In this document: positions 13,265-60,571 of the stretch, in pieces | Layout: every line of letters starts with the position of its first letter | Position numbering within the stretch: position 1 is the stretch's first letter | From: a virus | Taxonomy: Duplodnaviria > Caudoviricetes | DNA length: 64,000 bases | Reading direction: 5' to 3' (one strand) | IMG/VR virus record: IMGVR_UViG_3300035499_000517 | Span: 96,001 to 160,000 of that record | Translations under genes and position numbers: made by a program | Notes under the pieces: generated by a model | What the model was told of the DNA's origin: nothing | The model's database searches: none | The model's input: the letters and a program-made list of their open reading frames with translations, nothing else

Positions 13265-14377
13265 ATGATAAAAAGAAAACTTTTTAGCTCACCAGGTCTG
13301 TTTGAAGAAATGACAAAACCTGATGACAAGTACCGACCTTCCACTATCATAAAAATCCGATTGGACGATACACCCATTATGGAGAGTAAAGATGTTGATG
13401 CTAGTGATAGTGATGAGTATAAAAATCTTATAAAGCGAGCAGCATTGCTTCGGCTACTCTCTATCAGTAGGTCTGTCACAATGGCAGTGCTTGAAAAGTA
13501 TGCAATTATTGAGATGGATATCCATAATAGCGAGTTGGTTAAAGATTATGCTACAGCTGCTGAAAAGAGATCTGTACTTCATTGCATTCAGGAATCGTCT
13601 AATGGGAATATCCTAGTGCAATTCTTCCAGCATAAATATGAAGGAGATGATTTAGTAACTCGATTTATCGGGCATGACAAACCAAAGATTTTCTTTAAAA
13701 ATAAGACATTGAAGTTTAGTGAGGTTTTAGATTATGATGTAACTGGATACTTCTTCCCATTTAAGAATCCAAATCATAGAGGATTGACAGTGTATGATGA
13801 GTTTGGAATCCAGAATCCATTCACAAATAAGAAAAAGGAAGATACTTATGAAGGTGATGATGACTTGATTATGCTTTTGCCTTTTGCAATGCAATTTATT
13901 CATGACTATCGCAGATGTAGATTCAGCCCTATATCACAGATGAATTACGTGCATATTTGTTATATTGACATTGAAAGGTCTTTGTATGCATTGATCAAAG
14001 ATAAGTGTCAGCAGGAGGCATATTATGAAGTAGCAGGAATGAATTTTCCAAAATATTGTGATCCTTATGATGAAAACCCAAGTCCTCGCAATCTTACACC
14101 ACATCAAGAATGTATAAACCTCATGAATATCGTGAACGAAACACCAGAAGTTTTAACGATATACTTCAATCGTGTAGCTGATCTTATTCAAAAGGTGAAG
14201 TCTGGAGATAGATATTTACCATATCCTCTTAAGGATGTTAATCCTGCAGAACTTATGGAGGATTTGAGTGATCTCTTTAATAAATATTTCCCAGAATCCA
14301 TGGTAATTTGGGAAGTTGCAGCAACTATTGCAGATAGAGTTTCAAAAGAAAAGAATTGGAAAGGAGACAACGAATGA
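13265..14377 (+). CDS. Hypothetical protein, paralog of 14374-15405
   Basis: Shared LIKRAALLRLLSIS and FSEVLDYDVTGYFFPFKN motifs. Confidence 0.75.
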   Translation: MIKRKLFSSPGLFEEMTKPDDKYRPSTIIKIRLDDTPIMESKDVDASDSDEYKNLIKRAALLRLLSISRSVTMAVLEKYAIIEMDIHNSELVKDYATAAEKRSVLHCIQESSNGNILVQFFQHKYEGDDLVTRFIGHDKPKIFFKNKTLKFSEVLDYDVTGYFFPFKNPNHRGLTVYDEFGIQNPFTNKKKEDTYEGDDDLIMLLPFAMQFIHDYRRCRFSPISQMNYVHICYIDIERSLYALIKDKCQQEAYYEVAGMNFPKYCDPYDENPSPRNLTPHQECINLMNIVNETPEVLTIYFNRVADLIQKVKSGDRYLPYPLKDVNPAELMEDLSDLFNKYFPESMVIWEVAATIADRVSKEKNWKGDNE

Positions 14378-15405
14378 AAGACACAAGAAAAGAGTACGTG
14401 CTAATCTTTGCAAGATTATGTACAAAAACACCAGCTAGAACAGGGAATCCACTTCTTGCAACAATTGAGAATATCTCAGTGGAAGATGAAGATGAGCACA
14501 TGATGCTAGTAAAGAGGGCAGCATTTCTTCGGTTATTATCAGTAAGCAGCGATGTATCAATTATTGCAGATACAGACAATGCTGTTTTCATGTTTGATAG
14601 AAATGACTGGAAGGTATCGGATACTAGAGGGGAATATTCACCTCTTACAAATTCCGTTCAGTTTTCATCCATGCTTGAGTTTATTACCTCTGGTATAAAT
14701 GCTAATTATAAGATTAACGCAACTTTAAGTGACTTTGAGGAAGCGAAAGCAAAAATCGGTGGAGATACCATTACCGAATTTGAACACCGGGATTTACAGT
14801 TTTCAGAAGTTATCGATTCTGATGTTACGGGATTTATTTATCCATTTAAGAACAACACGCACAGGAGCCTTGCAATATACAAGGAATTCAATCTCCATGT
14901 ATCACACGTATATCCAAGATTTTCTAAGAAGCATCCGGCTGGCTATGAAGTTTCAGCAGAGTGTGCTCTGGCATTTATGATTGATTACAGGAGAATGACG
15001 AATGATGATATCACAAATCGATTTTATTGTGAGAAGTTAAAGGTATATGCTATTCTCTATGGTATTTTTGATGATTGCTCAGATTTATTTGAATTTGAAG
15101 GACCGAGATCACTCTGGAATTCAGAAGAGGAGAAAGCAGAGTCAATCCTTTCAATCAAGAAGGATTATCTGGAGTTCATGGGATTCGTATCAGAGGAACC
15201 GATTATATTATATGATTTCTTCAATCGTCTGAAAAAGGTCATGGATAACTATGAAAAATTTGGAAGATCAGTGGTTCCGGAGAATGTAAAAGCCAACATG
15301 GATCTCATCGTTCGTTTCTTCCGCACTGTTTTTAATGATTCCATGAGCATTCAGGAGATCATTACAAAGGCAGAGAATCACATTCCGAGGAGTCACATCA
15401 ATTAA
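14374..15405 (+). CDS. Hypothetical protein, paralog of 13265-14377
   Basis: LVKRAAFLRLLSVS and FSEVIDSDVTGFIYPFKN; ATGA overlap with AGGAG RBS. Confidence 0.75.
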   Translation: MKDTRKEYVLIFARLCTKTPARTGNPLLATIENISVEDEDEHMMLVKRAAFLRLLSVSSDVSIIADTDNAVFMFDRNDWKVSDTRGEYSPLTNSVQFSSMLEFITSGINANYKINATLSDFEEAKAKIGGDTITEFEHRDLQFSEVIDSDVTGFIYPFKNNTHRSLAIYKEFNLHVSHVYPRFSKKHPAGYEVSAECALAFMIDYRRMTNDDITNRFYCEKLKVYAILYGIFDDCSDLFEFEGPRSLWNSEEEKAESILSIKKDYLEFMGFVSEEPIILYDFFNRLKKVMDNYEKFGRSVVPENVKANMDLIVRFFRTVFNDSMSIQEIITKAENHIPRSHIN

Positions 15406-15422
15406 TAAAAGGAGGGATTTTT

Positions 15423-16265
15423 ATGTCAAATGAAACCAATGAAGCAGGAGATATAAAGTGTTTTAATGTAGAAAGTCTCTTGCATGTAAAACGAATCCGA
15501 TACATATCGGAATCAGATGTTCCTTGTAGAAAAGGAACGAAATCAGTAGTAGATGCTTTCAAGAACGACGATTACACAAGTACTTGGTGCATCGTGGAGT
15601 ACGATGATTATAATCAGATGCAGATTGTACTGGTTACCGATTGTCGAGAAAGGGACCTGATTTCTTTATTGAATTTTAAGGTAAAGAATGTAGTCGGTGG
15701 TGAATCCCGTTACATCGTGATTCCAGAAGGTGGATATCATTTCAATTATGAGGAAATGGTTGCTTATGAAATAAAGGAAAACGAAGCCTCTGATATGTCA
15801 AATAGAAAGTATGATGCCTATATCGGGAAAGATCGTAGTGGTTATGAAATGATCGATAAGATTGACTATGATAAGCTTTCCATGGAGGAATCTATTATCG
15901 CATATTACACAACCGATAAACAGGTTACGTTTGATGGAAATGCAGCCGATGCATATAAATTGGCAGAGAGTGTCGAAGATGAAAGGAGGCTTGCAAAACG
16001 CGTCGTTGATAGCTGGAATCATTTAATCTGCGTAGCTGCACATGATGGAAAACGTGCTGTTAGAGTTTTAAATGGTTCAAGGGATTTACCATCTGACTTT
16101 GTCGTAGAATACTTCACGAAGAAAGGATATGATGTAATTGCTGAATTTACACATCCTTACGGTGAAGAGAGTTTACGAGAGGGATGGGTTGTTACAGTTT
16201 CCTGGGAGAGAGGAAAACATCGCGATGGTGTTTTCACAAAGATTGGGATGAAGGAGGCACTATGA
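15423..16265 (+). CDS. Hypothetical protein, shared C-terminal G[YF]D..SW domain family
   Basis: AGGAGG RBS; YFTKKGYDV...VTVSW. Confidence 0.75.
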   Translation: MSNETNEAGDIKCFNVESLLHVKRIRYISESDVPCRKGTKSVVDAFKNDDYTSTWCIVEYDDYNQMQIVLVTDCRERDLISLLNFKVKNVVGGESRYIVIPEGGYHFNYEEMVAYEIKENEASDMSNRKYDAYIGKDRSGYEMIDKIDYDKLSMEESIIAYYTTDKQVTFDGNAADAYKLAESVEDERRLAKRVVDSWNHLICVAAHDGKRAVRVLNGSRDLPSDFVVEYFTKKGYDVIAEFTHPYGEESLREGWVVTVSWERGKHRDGVFTKIGMKEAL

Positions 16266-17068
16266 GTGATACGAAAATTGGGAAATTTCACCCAAAGAGT
16301 TTCAAGAATGTAGAGCGAATCATCTTTACAGCCGAGTCTCATATTTACATGGATAAAGAATCTATCTTTGTATTAGAACCAGCTTGTTTAGGTGAGTGGA
16401 TGTTGTCAGAATATATCGAGAATGAAAATACGATGGTTAATCTGGATGTAACATATTCACCGACTTCGGATTTGGAAGCCTTATCAGATATGCTAAATAA
16501 AATATTGAAAGAAGATCCGGAGAAAGAATATGATTATGTGATCGAACTGGAAAGTGCTGCAGATTCTATAAACATGGTCTTTGATCGTGAATGGATGGAA
16601 TGCAGATTCCGCTGTGATGTACGTATGGAGGCCTATCATTACCCATGTTCATTTATGGTTCCTGAGTCTTTCTATAAGAAGGTCTATACGACAATGCTGG
16701 AATCAATCTATCTGAAGTTATTGGGTGATAAAGGTGGAGTGAAAGGAGCTGTAAAACCTATTCCACCAGTAAAAGAATCTAACCAGATTGCTCATGAAAT
16801 GCGTAAAGGTAGATCAGGGCTTAATCTAAAATTGATGAATCAGATGATCAATGCAATTGAGGACGCAAGAGATGCAGGATTTTATACAATCGGGATTATA
16901 CTGGCGTATAATCCTGGTGTAAATTCAAGGTCTACATTGAATTATTTCGTGAAGGCTGGTTATGATATCATGATAAACATACATGAGAAGAATTATAAGC
17001 TGATAATCTCTTGGGAAGATGGAGAGAGAAAAGTCGGCAGATATTATGACAATACAGGAGGGCTTTAG
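16262..17068 (+). CDS. Hypothetical protein, same family
   Basis: AGGAGG RBS, ATGA overlap; YFVKAGYDI...IISW. Confidence 0.75.
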   Translation: MSDTKIGKFHPKSFKNVERIIFTAESHIYMDKESIFVLEPACLGEWMLSEYIENENTMVNLDVTYSPTSDLEALSDMLNKILKEDPEKEYDYVIELESAADSINMVFDREWMECRFRCDVRMEAYHYPCSFMVPESFYKKVYTTMLESIYLKLLGDKGGVKGAVKPIPPVKESNQIAHEMRKGRSGLNLKLMNQMINAIEDARDAGFYTIGIILAYNPGVNSRSTLNYFVKAGYDIMINIHEKNYKLIISWEDGERKVGRYYDNTGGL

Positions 17069-17071
17069 AAT

Positions 17072-18058
17072 ATGGCAAAAGAAAAAGTTGAAAGACTGAC
17101 TGTTGAAAATTATTACTTTCAATCAAATATTCCATTCACAAAGTTTGAACTGAGCAGTTTAGCAAATGTGATATACATGGAATTTCGGCATAGTAGTAAA
17201 TTTGTATTGGGGAGAGAAACTGTATGGGTTGCAACACATACCGATGTTCGGAAAATCCATAAGATTTTAGAGTCTGGAGAAGATATGAAGATGCCTAAAG
17301 GAACCAATCTAGCTGATAAATACGAAGACAAGAGTCATTGGTTTATTGCAGAATATGATTTTAAACAGCATTATTATATTGCAATTGATGAATATGCACT
17401 CACCGATGATGAATTCCTGGAGTTGTTAAATCTTGATCTTGTGGAGCATTATACTGCAGTAACCGATAGTGATTATATCTATGATTATTCATCAAAGTTA
17501 GCTATTTCACGAACGATAGCTACAAAGAATCAACAAGTCGTTTCGCGTCAAATGATGGAGAAACACCATAATCAGATTGCTAAGGTCAATCTTTGGGGAA
17601 TATTCAATATAACGGAATCCACCTACAAAGAAAAAGTATTTAACAATTCTGAACGGTGGATGGATTCAATGAATTTCGATGCAGTTATCTGTAGAAAGCT
17701 TAGCATGGGCTTTCTTGAGGAGAAGTCCATGGAATCTATGTTTGGAACCATGAAGAACTCTGAAATCAAGATGATTCGTAAATGGAGAAAGAAGGTCCTC
17801 AATGCAGTCATTAAAGGAAGAGGTAGTTGCAAGTTTAAAGAAACCAATGGTGAAAAGATCACTATTGCTGTGTTAAACCCTTTCCTCGATAATGGTTTTA
17901 GCATCATGCTTATAAAGAGCACACCTCTCAAATACTACGTTCACATCTTATGGAATGATCAAAAGAAGAAAGGTGATAAATTACATGGAAAGTTCGTATA
18001 CGTAGATAATGAATCAAATGCGGAAAAATCTAATGTGGAAGGAGAAGACAAAAAATGA
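17072..18058 (+). CDS. Hypothetical protein, same family
   Basis: PFLDNGFSI...VHILW. Confidence 0.75.
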   Translation: MAKEKVERLTVENYYFQSNIPFTKFELSSLANVIYMEFRHSSKFVLGRETVWVATHTDVRKIHKILESGEDMKMPKGTNLADKYEDKSHWFIAEYDFKQHYYIAIDEYALTDDEFLELLNLDLVEHYTAVTDSDYIYDYSSKLAISRTIATKNQQVVSRQMMEKHHNQIAKVNLWGIFNITESTYKEKVFNNSERWMDSMNFDAVICRKLSMGFLEEKSMESMFGTMKNSEIKMIRKWRKKVLNAVIKGRGSCKFKETNGEKITIAVLNPFLDNGFSIMLIKSTPLKYYVHILWNDQKKKGDKLHGKFVYVDNESNAEKSNVEGEDKK

Positions 18059-18570
18059 TATTCGACAAGAAATATTTAACTGTAGCTTGTAATGTTACAC
18101 TGGAAGGTCTGATCAAACAATTATCAGACCTTCCTTGTGTTGATGCAATCATTCATGTAAATGGGAATGATCTATTTTCTATAACACTTCCCGATCACAT
18201 CAGTAATCGTGAACTTAAAATCATTTCTAGCAATGAGGTTAAAGGTGACTATTTGACATGGAATGTAAAGAATGTAAATCTGTGGAATTTTGTTGATCAT
18301 TTAAGCTTGTTTGGAGGTTTTAAAGATGCAAGAATCAAGCTGAATGGAAAATCAATTTTCTACATTCATGTTGCAATGGATAGGTCTATTGTAGAAATCA
18401 GTGATAACCCACTTGAATATGATTATCCTAATGATGATATCCACATTCAGATCAATGGTTCTATCATGTCAACAAAAGAAAGGTCAATTATTGAGTTCTC
18501 TGATAAGAGGTCTTATAAATTAGAGTCTCAGGATGGTTGTGTTTCAGCTGATAATGGAGAACCTGTTTAA
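18055..18570 (+). CDS. Hypothetical protein with two copies of a domain shared with the N-terminus of 18586-19158
   Basis: TLEGLIKQLSDLP..DAIIHVNGNDLFSI and DARIKLNGKSIFYIHV. Confidence 0.7.
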   Translation: MIFDKKYLTVACNVTLEGLIKQLSDLPCVDAIIHVNGNDLFSITLPDHISNRELKIISSNEVKGDYLTWNVKNVNLWNFVDHLSLFGGFKDARIKLNGKSIFYIHVAMDRSIVEISDNPLEYDYPNDDIHIQINGSIMSTKERSIIEFSDKRSYKLESQDGCVSADNGEPV

Positions 18571-18585
18571 AAGGAGGAAGTAAGT

Positions 18586-19158
18586 ATGTTTGATCCAAAG
18601 TATTTTGCAATGGTAACTGGAGCCACCGTAAAGGGGCTCCGCGATTATTTAGCATCTCTGCCGAATCAGAATGCAGAGATCAATGTCGAAGGAGACAATC
18701 TCTTTTACATCCATGTAGAAGAGGATGGATCTCTCGTCAATTTTGACGACAATATGATGCTCGAGCAGTATAAGGATGATGTAGACAACGCTCTCATAAA
18801 GCTTACTGGAGGAACCGGAGGGATAAATGCAAGGACAGCTCGTTTAGACGCAATCATATCAAAGAGGAGATTCTTCTGGAATATTATTGACACGAAGATT
18901 GATGCTGGTGAAACTGAATGTCAGATCGATTTTAATACAGTTAGTGCTATCGACATTGAGTTCCTGGAAGACCTGATACATTCTGGGTTTGATCTTTATA
19001 TCCCGAAAATAACAATGCTCAGTCAGCGGTGTCCGGTCATTGTTGATTGGTTTGAAGGGAAGCCCAAGGATGGTGAATTTGTTGATTTGAATGACAAGAT
19101 CTATCTTGAGAATGGGCATCTCGTAGTAAGAGAAGATGTAAACAAAGGAGTTGATTAG
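18586..19158 (+). CDS. Hypothetical protein, hybrid of the two local domain families
   Basis: N-term TVKGLRDYLASLP..NAEINVEGDNLFYIHV; C-term LIHSGFDL...IVDW. Confidence 0.75.
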   Translation: MFDPKYFAMVTGATVKGLRDYLASLPNQNAEINVEGDNLFYIHVEEDGSLVNFDDNMMLEQYKDDVDNALIKLTGGTGGINARTARLDAIISKRRFFWNIIDTKIDAGETECQIDFNTVSAIDIEFLEDLIHSGFDLYIPKITMLSQRCPVIVDWFEGKPKDGEFVDLNDKIYLENGHLVVREDVNKGVD

Positions 19159-19163
19159 TAAAG

Positions 19164-20069
19164 ATGATTAGTGAACTTATTAAGGTAACTGCAAAAGATG
19201 CTGAAGAACTTGATAAAATAAAGACTGAACTTAAGAAAGCTACAAACAAGCTTTACGGAGAACAAAAGAAATCCGAAGATGTTTATAATCCTTGGTTCCG
19301 GAGTGAGGCTTTAATTAATGGAAGTATTCATGACGTTGTATTTTATGGAATGATATCAAAAGATGATCAATCTTTTGGTACATATTTCTTCCATTATGTG
19401 AAGCATAACACTTGGAGATTATTTCAATACCAACCGGAAATGCTTACACTGGTAAGAGATTTGGAGATGGAATTTGAGACAGATGGTTTGATTTCATTCC
19501 TTAGCAGTCGGTTTGATGCAGAGATCATTGCTGTTCATGACGTACTTTATATCATGAAAGGAATGGACTTAAACATGCTCGACTTATATAAGGAAAATAT
19601 CCGGAAAGTTGTCGAGGATTTGTATATTGAAGAGCTTGGTTCACTTTGTATACCTGCAGTGAAGAAATCAGAAGAGAACGAGCTCTCCGAGGATAATTCC
19701 TATAGAACATTTTGCATTAAATCTGCAGAAGAGATGTGTACTGCCTCTCGTGAAGCAAATCTTAGAGAGATTGAACTTGATAATCTGCGGAGAAAATGGA
19801 TGCATGAAATCGAGAATGTTGCAAGTAAAGGTCCTTGTGAAGTGGAAAGTATTGCCTTAAAGGATGAAATCACAGTACAGGTAATTCGGGAATTCCAGGA
19901 TCAGGGATATGATATTCATGTCTCACCGATTAAAAGAGCAACGATTCCGGGCACTCCGGAAGAAGTCCTTGTTGTTTTATCATGGATAAAGGGACTGAAA
20001 AAGGACGGAACTTTAATCATTATTAACAACTGTCTGGAGGACGTTGGTCTTTCTGCACCTACTTTATAA
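19164..20069 (+). CDS. Hypothetical protein, G[YF]D..SW family
   Basis: EFQDQGYDI...VVLSW; followed by terminator 20073-20103. Confidence 0.75.
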   Translation: MISELIKVTAKDAEELDKIKTELKKATNKLYGEQKKSEDVYNPWFRSEALINGSIHDVVFYGMISKDDQSFGTYFFHYVKHNTWRLFQYQPEMLTLVRDLEMEFETDGLISFLSSRFDAEIIAVHDVLYIMKGMDLNMLDLYKENIRKVVEDLYIEELGSLCIPAVKKSEENELSEDNSYRTFCIKSAEEMCTASREANLREIELDNLRRKWMHEIENVASKGPCEVESIALKDEITVQVIREFQDQGYDIHVSPIKRATIPGTPEEVLVVLSWIKGLKKDGTLIIINNCLEDVGLSAPTL

Positions 20070-20124
20070 GAATAAAAAGAAGGGAGTTAATCCCTTCTTT
20101 TTTATCCATTTAGATTTTCTTCAT

Positions 20125-20141
20125 TTTCATTTATATAATAT
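20125..20141 (+). promoter_or_regulatory. Early-type promoter TTTCATTTATATAATAT
   Basis: Consensus copy after terminator. Confidence 0.75.
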
Positions 20142-20241
20142 TTTGGTGATGTAAGAGAAGAAAAAGAATCTTATGTCAAGAAACTAAGGGCCAAAATTAC
20201 TATGGTCCGAAAATAAATTTATTCCAAAAGGAGGAAATATT

Positions 20242-21006
20242 ATGTTTAATGAGAGTCTTTTAAAACATGCGAAAGAGGTAGCGTTTATCGGCAAAGGTAT
20301 TATCAATGAGGGCAAGGAGGTCGTTTACGTACTGAGGAAGAGATCAGCTGGTGATACCTTCACGCTGATGGAGTATATTGGTGGTAAAGACATACTCGTA
20401 ATGCTCGAGTACAATATCACACCGGATCGCGGCGTCATCATCTTCGAGAACTTATCGGTTTCTGAAAGATACATCTACATGAAGGGTGAAACCATGAAGT
20501 TTGATCTTCCGTCTGAGGAAATCAAAGACAGAGTTTATATGGATTACAAACACATGATGTATGGTTTGAAAGGAATCAACCGGGTGCTTTCAAGAGACGA
20601 TTATGTTATCGAGTGCATCAACAATGCTGAGGATCCAGCGGTAGTAGATAACGAAGCCGATGACAAGGAAACGGTTACATTAGAGCTTCCGACTGCTGCA
20701 AAATCTTTCGAGGATGGTGGTGCACGTGAGATTGAGAATTACATCAAATATATCAACAAAGCCGTTGCTAATGGGAAACGTGAAACGTATTTAACGGATG
20801 GTACAAGTTGGCTTCCAAGAAGGGAGCACATTGAGTATCTTGTAAATGCTGGCTACGACATCAATGTTGAGAAAATCTCTGGCAACTATCACGTTGTTGC
20901 AAACTGGGACTCCGCAAAGGAATCCGGAGGCAAAATCATGTATTCAGTATTTGGTGGAGCTGATGAACCGAAAGAGGTGTCGTTAGACTTCTTCGAAAAG
21001 AAGTAA
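20242..21006 (+). CDS. Hypothetical protein, G[YF]D..SW family
   Basis: AGGAGG RBS; YLVNAGYDI...VVANW. Confidence 0.75.
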   Translation: MFNESLLKHAKEVAFIGKGIINEGKEVVYVLRKRSAGDTFTLMEYIGGKDILVMLEYNITPDRGVIIFENLSVSERYIYMKGETMKFDLPSEEIKDRVYMDYKHMMYGLKGINRVLSRDDYVIECINNAEDPAVVDNEADDKETVTLELPTAAKSFEDGGAREIENYIKYINKAVANGKRETYLTDGTSWLPRREHIEYLVNAGYDINVEKISGNYHVVANWDSAKESGGKIMYSVFGGADEPKEVSLDFFEKK

Positions 21007-21063: not shown

Positions 21064-22207
21064 TTATAATTTGAGTAAGTCTTCCAGTGGAGATTCTGCT
21101 TCATGCGTTCCTTTTCGACTTCGGTTAATTGCGGTTGATACCATATCATCAAAAGACTCAAAGGTCATTCCAGTAAAGGTTGAAGTAACCTGACAAATCC
21201 TTCGAATAGAAGCCATCTCATAATCGAACTGGTTCCAATCAGGATTCTTACCAATTACCTTTGCAAACTTATATGCCGGATTTCTCTTCCATCGATATGC
21301 CGTACTTAATACGACTTCCTGAATTACAGAAGGAACTCCAAAGTTTACTTTATTCATCTTCTGATTCTTTCTCCATAACCAAATCGATTCTTTGTATGGA
21401 ACTGTTGAAGGAATCTTTCCATAGTTTACAAATCGCAGCATTAACTGTGCATTTGTTGAATCTTCTAAGACTTCTCCAACACAGAATTTATGCCCTTTCG
21501 AATAACTGTAGACAGTACAGCCTGTCTTTCCAATACCTGGTAAGTTAATTACCTTATGCTCGTATTCATACGTATAATACGTATTCCAGCTTGGTACTTT
21601 TAAAGTATCAAAGTGATCAAATTCACCATTCTTATAAATACCAACTGTTGTAATACCAAACAAACGTAACTGTCCAGGTGCTGTTTCTGCCATCAAACTA
21701 TTCTTGAAATAGCTATCCGGAACGTATAACTCAAAGTAAGGAACATCAATCGCAATATCCGTTCCATCAGCTTTAAAAATATTCTGACGACTAAGTAACA
21801 TATCATTCATATCAAGCTTTTGGAATCGAAGTGTACTATCATGAAACTTCTTCATATTCAAGTTGGTAAGTGTAGTAGCAATCTTATTACTATCCAAACC
21901 AACAAATTTTGAATCTAATATTCCAGCACATTTCGAACAAATCTTTCCACTCTTTGTACCTTTACAGCACATCGGAGAATACATATGGATGAGTCTTCCA
22001 TTGTAAGTGGAAGCATTATCTTTTGTAAGTAAAACGGTTTCCCCGTTATCATTAATATATCTTCTTGCAAAGTCATTGATGTCATTTGCATCAAAGATGA
22101 AATCAAGTGTAGTTTCTGTTCCACAATCAGTTCCATCTTCATCAACAACTTCTGTTTGGTTACCTGCCATAAGCTGTTTCGCTAAGTATCCTGAATCTGA
22201 AGTACCT
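21064..22207 (-). CDS. rpoC: Phage RNA polymerase beta' subunit, exon 3
   Basis: Bridge helix GTSDSGYLAKQL, DCGT, SPMCC...CSKCAG zinc site, trigger-loop-like MKKFH; in frame after splicing at 22208. Confidence 0.85.
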
Positions 22208-22687
22208 CATTATGAATTGCCTAATTTCATAACAGACTATATCTTCATCTCAAATATTCTATTACCAAATATTTGAGAGCTCTCCATTTGGGATTTTTGA
22301 TATCATTAGATATCTCACCTACATTTCGCTCTATTATTGAGCCTACTCGCTTCGTGTAGATATTTCAATCTACCTTATTTTCAAACCAGCTACTACTATT
22401 ATAGTATTTAGAGATTTCTCTCAATCTGGTTGTCTAGCTTTCCCTAGTCGTTGAACGTTACAGTATCTTGTACTGTCTTCGCAGCGGATTTTCCATTCAC
22501 ATGAATCTTGTTACTGTACCTAAGGCATTACCCTTCGCCCTTAGAATATCACTACTCTAAGTTAGTAATTCATATGTTAATTGGTACAACTGGCTACTAG
22601 TTGCATGTAACGACAAAGTTACATCTTTCCCGCGTAAAGAGAGGTTTATATAACGACTCACGCCGTTATGCGGCATATATTAAAAAG
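22208..22687 (-). ncRNA. Group I intron (480 nt, no homing endonuclease ORF) in beta' bridge helix
   Basis: P1 GCGGU/GCCGC with U.G pair; P7 elements UCAACGACUA and AAGAUAUAGUC; terminal G; splicing restores KAV-GTSDSGYL. Confidence 0.85.
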
Positions 22688-23657: not shown

Positions 23658-23986
23658 CAATCTGGTTTCTCATACTCTCGTATGAAGTTTAGACTATATC
23701 TTCGTTAATATAATTAACACTCTCCGTTTCGGATTGTTTCACCTACATTTCGCCCTATGATTGAGCCTACTCGGTTCAGATATTGCTATCTGCCTTTCCC
23801 TAGCCGTTGAGCCCATATCTCGATGAGATACTTCGCTGCGTCGATCATCTCTATTCTTAACCTTGATTACCATATCTCCGGAGTTACCCTTTGCCCTTGG
23901 ACTGTCGCCATTCCAAGTTGGTAGTTAGACTTAACGAGACTTCCCCGCGATTAGAAGAGTTTAAGGTGACCTATAGTGATGGGTTA
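23658..23986 (-). ncRNA. Group I intron (329 nt) inside the catalytic GGDYDGD motif
   Basis: P1 GGUGACU/GGUCACC; P10 CCAUCA with exon UGAUGG; UCAACGGCUA and AAGAUAUAGUC; terminal G. Confidence 0.88.
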
Positions 23987-25418
23987 AGTCACCCCCGAGT
24001 CCTGCAAGATATGAATTGGAAAACTGCAGTGTATCTATGAACTGCGTTGCGTTCTTCTCTCGTGGACACAGGAAATTTTGCTTTGGAAAATGCTTGTAAA
24101 TCATTCCATTGATTTGAACGACTTCTGTTTGGAGTGTTGCAATTGGATTGATTTCAGAGACAAAGATTCCATAAGCATCAGATACAGGGTAACGTGTAAT
24201 GATCGCATGTTGATTCTTTGTGCAATCATACGCTGCCATGTAAAGAATGTCATTTACAGTCATCGGACGGTTTGAAATTGTGGAAAGTTCATGTGTTCCA
24301 CTTGGGTCCATTCGCTTTCCTGTAAATAACACATCATTGTATTCATCTTTTGCAATTGGTGCTTTAATGGGGTCAAACCTTGATTCAGGATCATGCATGT
24401 AAAGAGTCATCATATCTTCAATATACTGATCGGAGAAATAAAGCTCCGGTTTGTATAAAGCAATATAATCAATCTTCTGCTCCCCTGTTTTCTTATCGGT
24501 TTTAATGATTGGAACCTGCTCTTTGTTTGTGATAAAATTTCTCTGGAAGAAAGATTTTAACCAATTAACCATAAAAGGAGCATCCAAGTCACAAATCTGT
24601 GAAACGGGAACTCCAGTAATACCGAATCGGCTTCCAGTCTCTTCCGGACTATTATCATGATACAAAGGGCAAGAAATAACAGAACGTACACAGTTGTCTA
24701 CGTTCTTTCCCATTAAGTACTTTCGTATGATACCATTCTTTTTCTCCAGCTTCCGCTTAAAGGTATCATAAATTTCACAAAGTAATTTCTGAATCATATA
24801 ATGAGTTCCATGAAGGGTAAAGTCATACATGTCTTTATCTCTTATCACTTTGCTCAAACGAATCAGCTTTGTGTACATATTATTCAGTGGATCTGTTTCT
24901 CCACCTCCATCACTTCCCGGCATAATGTCGCGGTAAAAGACAGGAATGATGATCATCTTATCTACAAAGATTTGATTTTTTGGGGTCTTTGTCAAAAGGT
25001 CAACACGTTCATCACGCATTGCAGAAGACGCTTCATCTATCTTCAATTTCCAATTGATTTTCTCCCAATTCTCATAGATAAATTCGATGCCTGTTTGCCC
25101 GTTCTCATCATCTTGTACGAGTTCGCCTTTTGGAGTAATGGAATAATACTCAGCTCCATTTACAATGCGCTCGATGTTTCTATATAATCGCCTTAATGAT
25201 TTATAGACATGAGGATGAAAAAAGTGCCCATAGAGGGTCACATACGCATATCTATTTTTTCTGGAACGAGTATCGATACCAAATATTTCGTTGGATAATA
25301 AACCACCGGGATCTGCGACTCCTCCTCTTGCAAATACAATTGGAGAAGTGACTTCTTTTAAGTGATTCAATCCGACGAAGTCATCAAAATTAAATAATTC
25401 GACTTTAATTGTTATCAC
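23987..25418 (-). CDS. rpoC: Phage RNA polymerase beta' subunit, exon 1 (probably virion RNAP)
   Basis: GGLLSNEIFG, IIPVFYRD, KNGIIRKYLMGKNVD..RSVI, TRYP, LGGD; spliced product about 1180 aa; late promoter 25430-25441. Confidence 0.85.
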
Positions 25419-26587: not shown

Positions 26588-26602
26588 AAAAATCAACTTA
26601 AT

Positions 26603-26619
26603 TTTCATTTATATAATAT
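26603..26619 (+). promoter_or_regulatory. Early-type promoter TTTCATTTATATAATAT
   Basis: Consensus copy heading the 26.6-30.1 kb unit. Confidence 0.75.
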
Positions 26620-27116
26620 CTATATAGATACATGAGAAAGGATATGTACTGAAAGGAGGGCATTTTGATATTCTCGTATCAACCACGTCCGGTTGTGGCT
26701 GAATTCTACATGAAATAATTCCATGTATTGTGGCTAGTATATGGATAGTTTTGTGAATGGATTCATTTGTTACTCGTGAACCTGATTGATAGTATTATAA
26801 TTACCTTGATTTTTATATACTTGATTTTGATGATTTGTGAATGTAAAAACAAAGTGTTTTGGCAATGGGCACTTTATGACAATCGTGACATTCTAAAGCG
26901 TGGCAGCAACGTCGTTAAAATGGTATATGAAAAGCATGAGAAATTTATAATAATATCAATTCAGAGACATTTAATTAAGGAGGTTTAAGATTTCCTCTCT
27001 AACCTTCTCGTATTCTTTTAGTTTAGATAAAATTTAAATGGTGAAGACTGGCCTATGTAATTGATCGGAAAATGGTTGGTCTTCACCATTTACTGTCACT
27101 TTAGGAGGAAAAAAAT

Positions 27117-28067
27117 ATGAGTTTATTTGAGACAGAGGCAGAAAGAGGTTGGCAATTAAGTTTTCGAATTAATAGTGAATTACTTAGTAAAATGGCACCA
27201 AGTGAACAGACTGAAGAAGTTTGTATCATGGCAGTAGAAAGAGATGCAGATAATTTAAAGTATGTAGTAGATCAAACAAGAACGGTTTGCTATGAAGCAA
27301 TTAGAAGAAACCCAGATACATTGCAGTATGTCTGGGATCAAACGGATGACATCTGCTTGCTTGCAGTTATGACAGATGGGTTGGTCCTTCGTTATGTACA
27401 AAATCAAACCGAAGAAATTTGTCTTGCTGCAGTGAAACAAAATCCGGAAGCAATCATCTATGTAAAATCTCAAACGTATCGTATCAAAGAAGCAGCGATA
27501 AAAAGAGATGGCATGATGCTTCGATATATAACCCTTCCAACGGAGTACTTCTATGAGCTGGCATTGAAGCAGAATCCGAATGCAATCATTTTCATCAAAG
27601 ATCCAACGGATGAACAAGTTGATTATGTATTAGAGCAGAATCCGGGATTAATCTCTGTTGTGGAGCAGACTGAAGAAAGGAGGTCAAAAGTTTTAGAGAA
27701 TTGCCCAGCATGTATTCAATATATTCATGAACCATCAACAAACGAATGCATTCATGTCGTTTCAACGGATGGGTTATGCTTACCAAATATCACACAGAAA
27801 TATCGGACAAAATCAATATACTTTTATGCTGTAAAAGAAAATCCAGAAGCATTGGATTATGTCGTAGCAGATCATCCAGACGACGATATCATTTTTACTT
27901 GTGGAGTAGAGGCTTGTGAAATCGGAGGACTGAAATATTTATTCCGTCTTAAGAATAACAAGTTTCGAGTATTCAGGGAGATAATGAGAAATCGTAGACA
28001 TCGTCTTTTTAGAAGGGTTGAAGATAAGGTCGATGATTTCTTCAATTGGTTTTTCGGACCTCGCTAA
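27117..28067 (+). CDS. DUF4116-type helical repeat protein
   Basis: About 22-aa repeats QTEEICLAAVKQNPEAIIYVK; AGGAGG RBS. Confidence 0.75.
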   Translation: MSLFETEAERGWQLSFRINSELLSKMAPSEQTEEVCIMAVERDADNLKYVVDQTRTVCYEAIRRNPDTLQYVWDQTDDICLLAVMTDGLVLRYVQNQTEEICLAAVKQNPEAIIYVKSQTYRIKEAAIKRDGMMLRYITLPTEYFYELALKQNPNAIIFIKDPTDEQVDYVLEQNPGLISVVEQTEERRSKVLENCPACIQYIHEPSTNECIHVVSTDGLCLPNITQKYRTKSIYFYAVKENPEALDYVVADHPDDDIIFTCGVEACEIGGLKYLFRLKNNKFRVFREIMRNRRHRLFRRVEDKVDDFFNWFFGPR

Positions 28068-28074
28068 GGATAAG

Positions 28075-28630
28075 TTGAGTCTGTCGAGGTGATGTAGTGG
28101 TATAGACTGGTAATGCTTAGTGACGTGATGTTTTGTTGCGTGGCGTAATGGTATAGTGCATTGACGTAATGGTATAGTGAAGATGGTACAGTGCTGTGAT
28201 GTATTGGCGTAGTTGATCTATGTGGCGTGCAGTGAAGTATTGGTGTTGTTTAGTGAGGAATGCTCAGATATGCAATTGGTAGTCTGATGCTCAGTTCAGT
28301 GTTGCCAGGTGAAGTGTTGGTATCGTTTAGTGATGAGGGTTGTGCTCTGGAGAGGTATAGAAAAGTAGAGTTATCTTAAGTAATGGTGTAGTTTGGTGAC
28401 GCTAGTTTTGTAACGTAAAGGTAGGGTAGAGTAGAACACTGTTCTGTTCCGTGTCGGTGAAGTGAAGTTTCGTACTGTGGAGCAACGTTTCGCATAGGTA
28501 AGGTAAAGTATCTCATATTTGTGTTCAGCATAGGTGAAGTAAAGTGGTGAAAGGAATGTGTAGTATGGGTATTGTTTAGTGACGCAAATTGTCGATATGT
28601 TTTGTTTTGGCAGAGTATTAAGAGATATCT
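28075..28630 (+). repeat. Non-coding 5-nt periodic array 1 (TNNNG units with periodic extra G) closed by AGTATTAAGAGATATCT
   Basis: e.g. tgacg-tgatg-ttttg-ttgcg-tggcg-taatg-G-tatag; G/T skew; no ORF >=60 aa in any frame. Confidence 0.85.
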
Positions 28631-28674
28631 AATTTTGGAGCTTATTGATTTTATTGTGAAGAAAGGAGTGTGAA

Positions 28675-28896
28675 ATGGAAGTAAAGATTACATCAGAAAA
28701 AGATATTGTATTTAACACCGAGGAATTACCAAAAGTCAAAGAAGAGCTAAATGAAATAGCAAATAAACTTGACGCTTTACAAGAACGTGATTTCTTCCAA
28801 GATAATGAAAATACCTTCATGAAAATCTTGGGAGATGCAATCACGTCCATTGATGATTTACTCGATGATATCGAAACCCTGGAATCTCAGATCTAA
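28675..28896 (+). CDS. Small acidic helical protein between arrays
   Basis: AAGGAG RBS; DAITSIDDLLDDIETL resembles the motif in 29769-30050. Confidence 0.7.
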   Translation: MEVKITSEKDIVFNTEELPKVKEELNEIANKLDALQERDFFQDNENTFMKILGDAITSIDDLLDDIETLESQI

Positions 28897-29203
28897 GCAA
28901 AGGTTTTCCATAGTGTAGTCCGCTTTTGTACTGGTATGGTCCAGTAAAGAGGGAAATGTGACGTTCAGTACGGGCGTGGTCACGTGAGGTACTGTATGGC
29001 TTTGTGCCGTAAAGGTGAGGTAAAGCAAGTCATTGTATAGTTAAGGAGATGTAAGGCTTGGAACAGTAGCGATTGGTTGGGTATCGTAATGGTATTGTCA
29101 GGTAGTGTGGTGGCATAGCCGAGTGGCGTAGTGTTTTGTGTTGATATGGTTATCTGGCGTGCTGTATGGTTGTGTGACGATTGTTGAGTATTTTAGAAAA
29201 TCT
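28897..29203 (+). repeat. 5-nt periodic array 2 closed by AGTATTTTAGAAAATCT
   Basis: e.g. tcacg-tgagg-tactg-tatgg-ctttg-tgccg-taaag-G-tgagg. Confidence 0.85.
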
Positions 29204-29726
29204 TTAGTTGGTGTTGTAATGATAACGCCAGACATCGGATGGTAAAGTTTCGTGATGGTATATTATAGTGGGGTCCTGCGTGGTATAGGAATAGCTTGGA
29301 ATAGTAGGGTTGGGTCTAGTAGAGTAACGGTGTGACTAGGATATGAACAGTGATGTATCGTTACGGAGAGGCTAGGTTAAGAACCGTGATGTACCAGAAT
29401 AGTTTAGTCTAGTAGAGCATGGTGTAGTTATGGTGCAGTTACGCTCCGAAATGTGAGGTAACGGTACAGTGAGGAAATGCTACGCATGGGTGTAGTGCTA
29501 TTACGTAGCGTATTGGTATAGTTGCATATAGATATGTGCTGTGATGGTATGGACCAGTGTCGTTAGTAAAGTATTGCAATGGTATATTGAGGAAGGGTTA
29601 AGTATAGGTAGGGTTACGAACAGTTAAGAATAGTTGTGGTGAGGACTGGTTAACCATAGTAACGAACCGGTTTGGTTGCGTGGGTTAAAGTATACTCAGG
29701 TAATGGTAAAGTATTTTAAAATTTCT
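29204..29726 (+). repeat. 5-nt periodic array 3 closed by AGTATTTTAAAATTTCT
   Basis: e.g. G-tgtag-tgcta-ttacg-tagcg-tattg-G-tatag-ttgca-tatag-atatg-tgctg-tgatg-G-tatgg. Confidence 0.85.
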
Positions 29727-29768
29727 AATATTGGTGAAAGTAATTAAAGACACGAAAGGAAGTATTAA

Positions 29769-30050
29769 ATGGAAGAGAAATTAAGAAACAACACAAATTC
29801 CCTCTATGAAGTAACAGAGACGATAACTGGAGTGGATTCTCTGCTGAGTTATCTGAGGAGTATCTCAGACACAGAGACACTGAATGCAAGTACAAAGATT
29901 TCTCATTATACAGCAAATGCAATTACTGATCTTGAGAATTTGAAATCTGAGCTGGAGTCTCTTAGAAGATATAAGATTGTAGAGCGAAGGGAAGCAGCAA
30001 TCGGGATTTATCCATCAGATGCTCTTGCTAAAAGTTCTAACGTAGTGTGA
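29769..30050 (+). CDS. Small helical protein, probable paralog of 28675-28896
   Basis: AAAGGA RBS; NAITDLENLKSELESL. Confidence 0.7.
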   Translation: MEEKLRNNTNSLYEVTETITGVDSLLSYLRSISDTETLNASTKISHYTANAITDLENLKSELESLRRYKIVERREAAIGIYPSDALAKSSNVV

Positions 30051-30061
30051 ACGAGAAAATA

Positions 30062-30099
30062 AGGAGAGGATGAACACAACCATTCATCCTCTCTTTTTT
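30062..30099. terminator. Bidirectional terminator
   Basis: GAGAGGATGAA...TTCATCCTCTC-TTTTTT. Confidence 0.8.
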
Positions 30100-51427: not shown

Positions 51428-52151
51428 CTAAATAGCTTTCAAGAACTGAATCAGTTCGTGACAAATCTGGTCTTCAGGTGCAATGATTTCTTTCCCTGTA
51501 AGACTTGGTTCCTCATAGGAAACGTACGTAAACTTTGTGTAGATAAACGTACTGAGTAATGATTTTATACAACCTGGTTTCAATTCCTCTAACTCTCGGT
51601 ACTTCTGAGTCACTAGGTATATGTAATCCGCGTCTTCCTCAATCTTCGATAAGAGCTTTGAATTTCTGACCATACGGTTATTTACTTTTCCAGATATATT
51701 GCCTGTCAATATATAGGGTAGAACTACATCCTTTCTATCCCATTCTCCTGTCTCATTTAAATATCCGGCGTTCAAAATCAATCGTTTCTTCAAAATAAGT
51801 TCCATAATACAAAATTCTTTTAAAGGTACCATGAACTGGTCACGGTAACTCATAAAGTTTTGCGAATAAATCGAACGAATTAAATTAGTCTGAATATCAC
51901 TTGTGTGTTGATTCTTCATGTAGTACTCAATTTCTGAATCTGAGATTGGAACGTCATTCTGTCTCAAAAGACGTCTGATTGTCTCATCTTTATTAATCTC
52001 GGACAAGTCGATAATTCCCTTATCAATCTTTGTCAGATTCATCTCCATCTTATCAGATGCAGAGAGTCCTTCAGAATCTCTCATGTTAGTCATTTCAGTT
52101 AATGTCTTGGAGTATATCTCCTTTAAGAAGAATATCAGCTGATACTTGATA
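51428..52151 (-). CDS. Exon 2 of probable nvRNAP promoter-specificity subunit
   Basis: In frame after splicing (TI-IKYQLIFFLKEIYSKTLTEMTNMR). Confidence 0.7.
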
Positions 52152-52564
52152 CGTCCAACGTGAACTGACTATATCCTTATCATTATACTCTATTACCAAG
52201 TATAATCATACCTCCCGTTTCGGTTTGTTTCAACCTACCTTTCGCCTGCTATCTTAGGCCTACTCGCTTCGTGTAGATATTTCAATCTACCTTATTTTCA
52301 ACCGACCTACAAATGTATTTATGGATTTCTCCAAATGTCGATTTCTAGCTTTCCCTAGTCGATGAAGTCATATCTCATCATTGTGAGATACTTTCTTGCG
52401 CCGATTACCTCTAAATTCAACCTTGGTTACCATATCTCCGGAGTTACCCTTTGCCCCAGAATCATCACTGTTTCTGGTTGGTAGTTGAATGTTAAACGAG
52501 ATGTCCCCGCAATTAGAGAGGTGTTTCCAGAGAACTAAGTTCTCCTTACGCCACTATCTTACTA
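52152..52564 (-). ncRNA. Group I intron (413 nt, ORF-less)
   Basis: P1 CCAU/GUGG with U.G; P10 GAUA/UAUC; UCAUCGACUA and AGGAUAUAGUC; strong similarity to the two beta' introns. Confidence 0.85.
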
Positions 52565-53487
52565 ATGGTTTTGTTGAACCCTATTGGGTTCTCAGCATAT
52601 TTCTTCTTCTTTGGGTCCCAGTTCTTGTTGAACCGGTACTTCACAATATTCTCACTGATGAATTGCTTCTTGATAAATTTCTCAATCAATAACGCTGGGT
52701 CATCACCGAATATCTCACGCTGTCTAAAGATTTTCTCATTGTGGAATGCCGAATCCACAACCTTTCTCTTGACATACACAAACAGTTTGTTGAAAATGTT
52801 GACATTGTCCTGAAACAGCTCCAATGTCGGTGAAAAGAAATCGTATATGATTGATACGTCTCTCTTCGGTTTCAACTCATCTGGCTTGATTTTATTCTTC
52901 GTGAAATAATGAAACATCACCGGTACAATCAGTTTCATTGCAAATGATATCCGAAGCAGAATCTCAATATGAATATTCTTAAATTCCAAAGACTCCAAAT
53001 ATCGTTTGTCTGTATTCTGCTTATAGGTTACATCTGGTGAAACTTTCTCGATGTCATCGAGATAATTGTCATGTACCATGTCACGAATCTTCTGACACAT
53101 TGATGGTGTGAAGATTAGTTCATAAATCAAGTCAATTAATGCTTGTGGATTTTCGCGTGTGAAGGCTCCCACTTTGTCAATCTCATACTTGATCTTTAGG
53201 TATGCAGTCACCAGTTCATTCTCTGGGTCATACCGATTGATGAAGTAGTCGATGTAACTGGAAAAGACTCTTAGATGTTCCTCATAAGAAGACTTCTTCA
53301 CACAAAAGTTGTTGTACTTCTTGAACTCTGGTATTCCAAATACCCGTTCAAAATGTACGATGAAAATGTTGCCGTCGCTTTCTGTTATCACTTCTCCTTT
53401 CTTTGGCTTCCAAGTGTTGATCTCAGCACTTCGGTTTGCGTATCGTAATTCCTCTTCAGTATTCGGTTCCTTTTTCCGTCTACTCAT
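52565..53487 (-). CDS. Exon 1 of probable nvRNAP promoter-specificity subunit (AR9 gp226/phiKZ gp68-like)
   Basis: Spliced ~548 aa; early promoter at 53536-53552; two genes from the chaperonin, as I recall for AR9 gp226/gp228. Identity is inference. Confidence 0.55.
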
Positions 53488-53535
53488 TGACGCAATCACC
53501 TCCCGAGTTTATAGTTACTTATTACTCTCAAAATG

Positions 53536-58099: not shown

Positions 58100-58900
58100 T
58101 TAAATCTCAGAAGTCGGCGTATCCGGAGTTTCCTCAGGTTTTTCAACAGGTTTCTTCTTTCTATACTTTGAAAGTATCTTATTTCTGATCTGAGACTCGA
58201 TTTCGACCTGTGTAATATCATCCAGCATATCAGCATAATGCAGAATGAAGTTTCCGTTAATATTAAAATCATCATATTTTTCATTAATGAAATCATTCTC
58301 CAAGTTTGGTCCATCTCCACGAGAGAGTTCCATGAACTCATCAATTGAAATATCTTTATTGTGAAGAATGTATTCCATACACTTGGTGATACCAGCAACG
58401 ATTGTGATATCATCTTCATCATCAACAACTTCTCTTAAGGAATTCGTTGTGACATCTTTCTTCTTCGGCAGCATCTCTGCCAGTTCTTTTTTATGTTGTA
58501 AAATGTAGTTGTAAGCGAACGTTAAGTAGTTCTGCTTTAAGTTAATGACGAAGAAACGATAGGTATAGTGTATGAGCTCAAGCTGCTCATGTTCTGGCAT
58601 ATCTTCCAGATAAGGAAACCCGATAGAGAGTTTCTCTTTAAAGATATCTCTCATAAAGCTCATGAACTGATCATAGAGCTGTGTGATTTCCTCCTCGTTT
58701 TCTTCATCCATGTTTTCTTTCGTTATCGTATAACGTGTTTCAAAGGTTTGTACAAAGTCGTTCTTTCCATAGGTAATAGGATCACTAAACTGCTGTCTAA
58801 TAGAATCCTTAATCATAGAAAGAGGTAACTCAGAAAGCATGATCTCTTCATCTGCTTCTTCTGAATTATAGTCAAACCCCTTAAAGTGATCTAAGTTCAT
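58100..58900 (-). CDS. Hypothetical acidic protein
   Basis: AAGGAG RBS. Confidence 0.7.
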   Translation of the reverse strand: MNLDHFKGFDYNSEEADEEIMLSELPLSMIKDSIRQQFSDPITYGKNDFVQTFETRYTITKENMDEENEEEITQLYDQFMSFMRDIFKEKLSIGFPYLEDMPEHEQLELIHYTYRFFVINLKQNYLTFAYNYILQHKKELAEMLPKKKDVTTNSLREVVDDEDDITIVAGITKCMEYILHNKDISIDEFMELSRGDGPNLENDFINEKYDDFNINGNFILHYADMLDDITQVEIESQIRNKILSKYRKKKPVEKPEETPDTPTSEI

Positions 58901-58914
58901 ATATTACTCCTTTC

Positions 58915-59628
58915 TTAGATTTTTCCTTCTGAATATTTCCCATTGATAACTGGAATCTCAAAGGAATCTGCTTTTGCTTCCTGCTTACGTACCATATCCT
59001 GTTGTAATTTATTCATATAAGAAGTTGGATTTGGAACGGTATCCGGATGTGGATTTAACCTTTGATCTTTCTCCAATTCTCGTAAAATGGTTTCATGAAG
59101 TTGCGTTTGATCTAATGGTGGTCGATCTGGTAAAATCTGACCGTTGTGTCCAAGAACGCTTCCATCATGTGAAACACCCATAGAAGCAATCAATGATGGA
59201 TTATTCTGGTCTCTTGGAACCCGATGAAGTACTTTATCCGGTGTAATTGGCGGCTTAGGTACTGGTGGTAATCTGTTCGGGTCTTCGTCACGTTTTACAG
59301 TTTCCTGTCGTACGGTTTTCTTCGGTCCTTTTGGAGCCGGTTGTGGACGATAAGGACAATTCCTATCTCTGCAGTGTTTAATCTCTTCCGGATCAACTCC
59401 ACAACTCACATCACAGTTTGATACTGCTCCATTATTCATTCCACACATAGCTTTTGCTGCTCCAACAGTCCATGCAAAATGCTGTATATGGCCGCAATCG
59501 CAACAAAATAAGGCGAATCCAATTTTCTTATTATTAGATCCGATAATGTCAATATTCTTTTTATGCCTAGATCCGCAATCCGGGCATTTCCATTTCGAGA
59601 TTCGGTCTCGATCCATTACTATTGCCAA
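58915..59628 (-). CDS. Zinc-ribbon protein with Pro-rich tail
   Basis: CPDCG, CCDCG, further Cys cluster; late promoter TACA-AAGCTT-TA at 59654-59665. Confidence 0.65.
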   Translation of the reverse strand: MAIVMDRDRISKWKCPDCGSRHKKNIDIIGSNNKKIGFALFCCDCGHIQHFAWTVGAAKAMCGMNNGAVSNCDVSCGVDPEEIKHCRDRNCPYRPQPAPKGPKKTVRQETVKRDEDPNRLPPVPKPPITPDKVLHRVPRDQNNPSLIASMGVSHDGSVLGHNGQILPDRPPLDQTQLHETILRELEKDQRLNPHPDTVPNPTSYMNKLQQDMVRKQEAKADSFEIPVINGKYSEGKI

Positions 59629-59725
59629 AAAAGTTCACTCCTTTCTTAACTATTAAAGCTTTGTAAAAATCCATATGGAAATAAAAAAAGAGGGATATGA
59701 ATATCATATCCCTCTCATAAAATTA

Positions 59726-60529: not shown

Positions 60530-60571
60530 ACTTTTTCCTCCTTCTATATTATGTCATTTAATAAATGGTTT

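Follow-up and report, generated by a model that had tools for sequence, protein, structure and literature searches.

An apparently lineage-specific A/T-rich element at the 3' ends of three staggered VIPR-type arrays in a phage genome

VIPR systems, which pair a Cas7-like protein (Vipr) with a vrRNA, were described in 2026, and the variants set out in that preprint include "YNNNG" repeats and "staggered arrays" with a 1-nt overlap (bioRxiv 10.64898/2026.04.26.720920, Fig. S18); WGT/NN repeat variants are given in a second VIPR preprint. In the type II system of the Escherichia phage SUSP1, every guide carries a 3' tail of ~40 nt with a pseudoknot cap (bioRxiv 10.64898/2026.04.26.720927). VIPR-null phages and satellites can in addition carry solo (orphan) vrRNAs, which are one or two type II guides that remain after vipr-vap1 has been deleted (bioRxiv 10.64898/2026.10.15.759431). 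How staggered arrays are delimited and matured is not addressed in the main sections of the 2026 VIPR preprints.

The locus analysed here contains three G/T-rich, C-poor and ORF-free blocks, termed arrays A, B and C (Table 1). It lies in a window of 64,000 nucleotides, by which we mean the whole stretch of phage DNA that was analysed. GT co-occurrence at lag 5 amounts to 42, 23 and 27 in arrays A, B and C, respectively, whereas the remaining lags under 10 give about 0-11 (0-10 in array A). A phase-aware parse divided the three arrays into 46 segments and resolved ~218 N-G-T-N-N pentamers, 88% of which have the G and 77% the T and whose remaining positions are mixed, together with ~40 six-base junctions of the consensus NGTAWT that are nearly always followed by GGTAT. 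Because an NGTAWT hexamer precedes each restart with GGTAT, the units are 5n+1 nt long and the phase shifts by +1 at most junctions. Several units of array A (28232-28256, 28309-28333 and 28558-28582) open with GGTRT YGTTT AGTGA in common, which suggests duplicated or related guides within this array.

Table 1. Coordinates of the array locus and of related loci in other phages. Positions refer to the window unless another sequence is named.
Feature	Position	Strand	Description
Inferred early (virion RNA polymerase type) promoter TTTCATTTATATAATATCT	26596-26630	+	Promoter of the operon
DUF4116 repeat protein gene	27117-28067	+	Pfam PF13475, E 1e-18; first long gene of the operon
Array A	28068-28613	+	~100 N-G-T-N-N pentamers in roughly 15-20 units, mostly of 5n+1 nt; begins at the DUF4116 stop codon
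Motif copy A AGTATTAAGAGATATCT	28614-28630	+	Begins with the 6 nt that close the last array A unit
Extension of copy A, AATTTT + GGAG	28631-28640	+	Second hexamer-like element, then GG restart (from the alignment)
ORF73, small helical protein	28675-28896	+	ATG 44 nt past motif A; Shine-Dalgarno GGAG
Array B	28897-29186	+	~10 units; begins at the ORF73 stop codon
Motif copy B AGTATTTTAGAAAATCT	29187-29203	+	Splits array B from array C
Array C	29204-29709	+	~17 units; opens with TTAGTT + GGTGT
Motif copy C AGTATTTTAAAATTTCT	29710-29726	+	
Extension of copy C, AATATT + GGTG	29727-29736	+	
ORF93, small protein	29769-30050	+	ATG 42 nt past motif C
Intrinsic terminator	30061-30096	+	Closes the operon; conserved in L007
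Predicted Cas7-fold gene, 204-212 aa	L156:2393-3031	-	Upstream of an NGTNN staggered array
Predicted Cas7-fold gene, 204-212 aa	L159:8182-8799	+	Upstream of an NGTNN staggered array
Predicted Cas7-fold gene, 204-212 aa	L160:8480-9112	-	Upstream of an NGTNN staggered array
Predicted Cas7-fold gene, 204-212 aa	L161:1335-1949	-	Upstream of an NGTNN staggered array
Array regions of G002	G002:34926-37727 and 58873-61359		Array-vipr-array locus and two remote arrays, the latter beside a metallophosphatase-like gene

Like the staggered arrays of the VIPR preprint (10.64898/2026.04.26.720920), the three blocks are phage-borne and built from a five-base repeat with a fixed G and a pyrimidine, assembled into 5n+1 units. 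They thus show two of the hallmarks by which VIPR arrays are recognised, a tandem 5-nt repeat with fixed and variable positions, of the consensus GGY or a related one such as YNNNG, and a staggered architecture, in which units are offset by 1 nt; a further hallmark, a lone RAMP/Cas7-like Vipr gene beside the arrays, was not found at this locus. Such a gene is present at related loci. When IMG/VR was searched for the junction-plus-phase pattern, eight stretches were recovered, seven of them with arrays of the same grammar on phage contigs of 84-258 kb. At four of these seven sister loci a homologous gene encoding 204-212 aa (37-46% identity to one another) is located directly upstream of the array. 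The other three sister genomes also carry this gene, and it lies within 1.5 kb of arrays in six of the seven loci. A profile of the protein (A2) matched Cas7 in the PDB (E 3e-5), and its AlphaFold model (pLDDT 67.5, pTM 0.69) was matched by Foldseek to type VII Cas7 and to type III Csm backbone (Cas7-family) subunits with E ~1e-8. The family comprises at least 3,790 metagenome homologues, has no Pfam model and is not annotated in the source data. This protein is probably the Vipr of the N-G-T-N-N array type. Since the grammar matches and sister arrays of like grammar adjoin a Cas7-like gene, we assign arrays A-C, on sequence criteria, to the VIPR family and within it to the staggered guide-RNA (vrRNA) type.

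The present locus departs from the described staggered arrays in that three very long arrays are placed between protein genes in the early operon of an AR9-like giant phage and no vipr was found in the locus or elsewhere in the 115-kb record. Profile A2 detected no Vipr homologue in the six frames of the 114.8-kb record, which represents 47% of the genome, and Pfam searches gave no effector match among 20 locus and accessory proteins. Nine accessory genes on the + strand (13265-21006) have no homologue in the relative G001, and those scanned gave no significant Pfam match. With 47% of the genome in the record, an orphan status of the arrays is unproven. In the sister phage G002 (IMGVR_UViG_2061766007_000342, 258 kb) the vipr gene is found ~23 kb from the arrays that were first detected, while further arrays flank it, so giant phages can keep arrays far from vipr. 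The solo vrRNAs resemble our arrays in being guides without an adjacent vipr that possibly use Vipr made elsewhere; they differ in that here three arrays reside in a giant phage of which 47% of the genome is in the record. VIPR guides match their targets by a 1-nt skip rule; a target search allowing skips of 0-3 revealed no excess over shuffled guides in the phage genomes to which it was applied, namely this record with the arrays masked and G001. Polymorphism by site class inside the pentamers was too sparse for selection to show.

Arrays and genes share one strand between a candidate early promoter and an intrinsic terminator. For phage AR9 the promoter consensuses are AAATATATATTAT-N6-G (early) and AACA-N6-TA/G (late) (PMC5312081). 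The phage studied here has five near-identical copies of a motif, TTTCAYTTATATAATATCT, always on the + strand, at 26612 and at four other sites (also 20118-20150 and 37113-37145), and from its resemblance to the AR9 early consensus we infer a promoter role. The phage is an AR9-like giant gut phage, in which a single early operon would place the arrays and small protein genes on one transcript. Homologues of ORF73 in metagenomes are 97-100% identical, an identical one being encoded on a 257.7-kb contig, and BLASTP gave no alignment between ORF73 and ORF93 as possible paralogues. In the relative L007, the DUF4116 protein is 64% identical and is followed after 26 nt by an orthologue of ORF93 (63% identity), two other small genes and the same terminator, and the locus contains neither array nor motif. 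The DUF4116 gene is therefore not dependent on arrays, and the motif arrived with the arrays and not with the downstream genes.

The first-pass annotation had reported three 17-mers, one per array 3' end, and these are found exactly there, all on the + strand; its description of the middle copy as a divider of an otherwise continuous array also holds, as arrays B and C are indeed parted by copy B. Each copy starts exactly at a closing hexamer on the transcribed strand. The first six nucleotides, AGTATT, are the generic unit-closing hexamer, which has an internal array copy at 28236 as well, and the array-end-specific part is thus confined to WWRRRAWWTCT (11 nt) followed by WWWWTT-GG(T/A)G. At the array ends the usual GGTAT is replaced by 11 A/T-rich bases without G-U in register, after which come WWWWTT and GG(T/A)G, so that the whole array-end element including the 17-mer spans ~27 nt.

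To what extent this similarity exceeds chance depends on the length considered. The consensus AGTATTWWRRRAWWTCT, which was built from the same three copies that were then tested, has four exact matches in the window, whereas 0.01 are expected from shuffles, and still only those four when one mismatch is allowed across all 114.8 kb of the record. When three 100-nt end windows were shuffled and compared at any offset, the 10 invariant columns of the 17-mer were equalled in 21 of 300 shuffles (p~0.07) and the 15 invariant columns of the 27-mer in none of 300 (p<0.003). With free offsets, the 17-mer alone is therefore only marginally beyond chance. A chance resemblance in A/T-rich spacer DNA, helped by the common closing hexamer, would be in line with the 7% of free-offset shuffles that reach the observed 17-mer score and with the fourth exact match, which is unrelated intron sequence. 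We nevertheless consider it highly improbable, given the outcome for the 27-mer, the low number of exact matches expected per window and the position of all three copies, which is the same relative to the array ends.

The fourth match (22403-22419) has no adjoining array and lies inside intron 2 of the minus-strand RNA polymerase beta' gene. Intron 1 of this gene is a clear Rfam group I match, and G001 lacks intron 2, the two exons being separated there by 36 nt. The segment of ~150 nt around the match is a repeated intron core; the array-less G001 has at least six copies of it, and this record has two others. One of the G001 core copies contains the identical 17-mer, and the copy at 52314 differs from it by 2 nt. 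On the intron strand the fourth copy forms a GAGA-GAAA-UCUC hairpin, of which the motif match is the antisense, and under the 27-nt matrix it scores at background level. We therefore treat this copy as unrelated to the arrays, on the basis of its sequence context; the match also shows that the 17-mer can occur away from array ends. The idea that it might be a "solo" array end was ruled out, as it belongs to a group I intron core that recurs in the array-less G001. In this record the core family has three copies (22171-22665, 23669-24023 and 52233-52370), the last of which is placed between the minus-strand ORFs 51428-52093 and 52546-53499 and may split another gene.

Outside this lineage, the element was not recovered. 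None of the array ends in the seven other large phages carries the motif; they consist of assorted A/T-rich sequences, Shine-Dalgarno sites or terminators. The 27-nt weight matrix gave only background scores on the ends of 13 sister arrays, and an IMG/VR-wide search with a strict 25-nt motif pattern returned one match, which is within a coding gene. The expectation that the motif would always abut pentamer arrays stands for three of the four copies in this genome and fails elsewhere, where none of the 114 relaxed-pattern matches in IMG/VR has an upstream GT array. As sister arrays end without it, the motif is dispensable for vrRNA biogenesis in general. We regard it, from these sequence comparisons, as a lineage-specific boundary mark and not as a universal VIPR signal.

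Within the lineage, conservation could be followed at several distances. The complete 255-kb relative G001, which was found via a beta' exon, has no arrays anywhere, and its equivalent interval contains only one gene, of 521 aa. Neither DNA similarity nor queries with the DUF4116 and M48-like proteins turned up relatives in IMG/VR or among GenBank phages. Fourteen metagenomic contigs of 97-100% identity retain every motif copy within their reach, with copy A exact in all 14. In these near relatives, 0 of 51 motif sites are variable compared with 65 of 1342 array sites, 2.5 variable sites being expected in the motif. The motif is thus less variable than the arrays, which is the direction of conservation and weak support for it, as the difference is not significant on its own. 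In the more distant L137 (89% identity), one 21-nt unit of array A is deleted, ~45 nt are inserted and two stretches are replaced (28144-28560), and the array ends and arrays B and C remain 94-96% identical to this phage. Comparison of the two sequences shows that arrays evolve by the exchange of whole units. All relatives whose contigs extend to motif B, L137 among them, have it unchanged, and motif A has a 1-nt deletion in L137. A 10-bp hairpin, UUGGUGUUGU / AUAACGCCAG, is situated at 29208-29231, where array C begins just behind motif B, and is kept in L137 with one change per arm, both of them pair-preserving (U.A to U.G; A-U to G.U).

This pattern of turnover bears on the possibility that the three ends descend by cassette duplication from one ancestral array 3' end and have no function of their own. 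If units are exchanged rapidly in the array bodies and the non-repetitive end evolves slowly, the similarity of the ends would need little or no selection. The whole-unit turnover in L137, the confinement of the motif to one lineage with its absence from sister arrays and the modest significance of the 17-mer all agree with common descent, as does the resemblance between the ends of B and C, which have 34 nt in common at 71% identity (repeat family D12). However, the three copies are otherwise flanked by sequences that do not align, both upstream and downstream. Together with the lack of BLASTP similarity between ORF73 and ORF93, this means that a recent duplication does not account for the similarity of the motifs. 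Any duplication would have to be old, yet 15 of 27 columns are invariant in the three copies, and no variant of the motif exists in the 14 relatives. On balance, we see common descent alone as a somewhat unlikely explanation, although one that deserves to be taken seriously.

The L137 comparison also speaks to the suggestion, made when the motif was first noted, that it is an integration or expansion site for the arrays. A DNA-level site of insertion or extension, resembling a CRISPR leader or a recombination site, would fit arrays that sit between genes of an operon that is array-free in L007, with the motif at one end of each insertion. The CRISPR leader or degenerate terminal repeat is likewise a conserved non-repeat element at one fixed array end. 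The changes in L137 are, however, internal to array A (around 28150, 28238, 28385-28420 and 28500-28560), and none adjoins the motif. The array starts have no matching element, the arrays are not flanked by inverted or direct repeats, the neighbouring genes include no recombinase or nuclease, and the internal palindromes differ between the copies. Unlike a CRISPR leader, the motif is not accompanied by polarised growth or adaptation genes, and it occupies the 3' (distal) end of the transcript instead of the promoter end. The suggestion is thus disfavoured, and we give an insertion site very little credence.

A role in gene expression could be envisaged as well, either in the translation of ORF73 and ORF93, as an A/U-rich enhancer or standby site, or in transcription, as a promoter of an unrecognised phage class, with copy B as the leftover of a lost gene. 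The motif is A/U-rich and unstructured, its distance to the two start codons is nearly constant (44 and 42 nt), and ORF73 and ORF93 have similar Shine-Dalgarno and start contexts (repeat family D15). Against this, no ORF follows copy B, the spacer of 26 nt in front of the ORF93 orthologue of L007 lacks the motif, and the sequence is unlike early or late promoter motifs. Moreover, there are four copies in 115 kb, none of them before other genes, and near-matches are not enriched in intergenic DNA. We therefore rate an expression element as distinctly unlikely.

Several more specific identities were considered for the element and rejected. As a promoter it has no sigma-70-like site and resembles neither the phage's early motif TTTCAYTTATATAATATCT nor the AR9 late motif. 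It is not a terminator, the sole one of the locus being that at the end of the operon. No known RNA family or ribozyme, including self-cleaving ribozymes of the hammerhead type that stand between the guides in ribozyme-interspersed vrRNA arrays, was matched by cmscan between 26000 and 32000 at E<=1. A folded tail was discarded because the copies have no stable or common fold (MFE z-scores of +0.42, -1.14 and +0.57).

The reading we tentatively prefer, with slightly less than even confidence, is that the motif acts at the RNA level as a stop or processing spacer that forms the 3' boundary of staggered VIPR-type arrays, a mechanism deduced from the anatomy of the locus. Arrays, ORF73 and ORF93 would be made as one early transcript running from ~26612 to the terminator. 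In this transcript, an unstructured A/U spacer of ~17-27 nt after the last hexamer would break the five-base register read by a Cas7-like Vipr, for which no gene was found in this record. Where the array ends, this break may stop or delimit its coating by Vipr or the maturation of guides, and the spacer could expose a single-stranded site for cutting the array off from what follows, be it the next array or the ribosome-binding region of either ORF.

Of the options raised by the first-pass annotation, an RNA processing signal or 3' handle is the one that fits best, since the element is strand-specific, begins with the closing hexamer and is present at every array 3' end; a handle of the type II kind is not what it appears to be, as it has no stable or shared fold, is limited to one copy per array and is missing from the sister arrays. 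The tail of SUSP1, which marks the end of the Vipr filament, is comparable in that it, too, is invariable, belongs to the RNA strand and follows the repeat tract immediately on its 3' side, but it is a folded ~40-nt structure, whereas the element described here has 17-27 nt and no stable fold. The alternative of a protein-binding site is possible but so far unsupported, with internal palindromes that are not alike between the copies and a copy A that is shortened by 1 nt in L137. Among the staggered arrays compared, a conserved A/T-rich end element is seen only here, and none is mentioned in the Results and two Methods sections of the preprint (10.64898/2026.04.26.720920).

The VIPR system underlying this locus is known, and what is new is the motif, a lineage-specific variant detail. 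Its array grammar is now tied to the Cas7-like family described above, for whose 3,790 or more members Pfam provides no model. With three arrays that have the same short unstructured closing element, the locus offers a compact setting in which to test where coating or cleavage by Vipr ends. A more far-reaching proposal, which we put forward as speculative and unlikely, is that the ~27-nt element is a modular "array stop/insulator" for long vipr-less guide arrays inside an early mRNA operon. It would end the coating by Vipr, which may come from a rival prophage or from a distant gene, and would provide an entry site for a nuclease. If this is true, a single transcript could yield ~46 guides and two small proteins with ribosome-binding sites kept free of filament, and the element would stand for a new way of processing or punctuating VIPR arrays.
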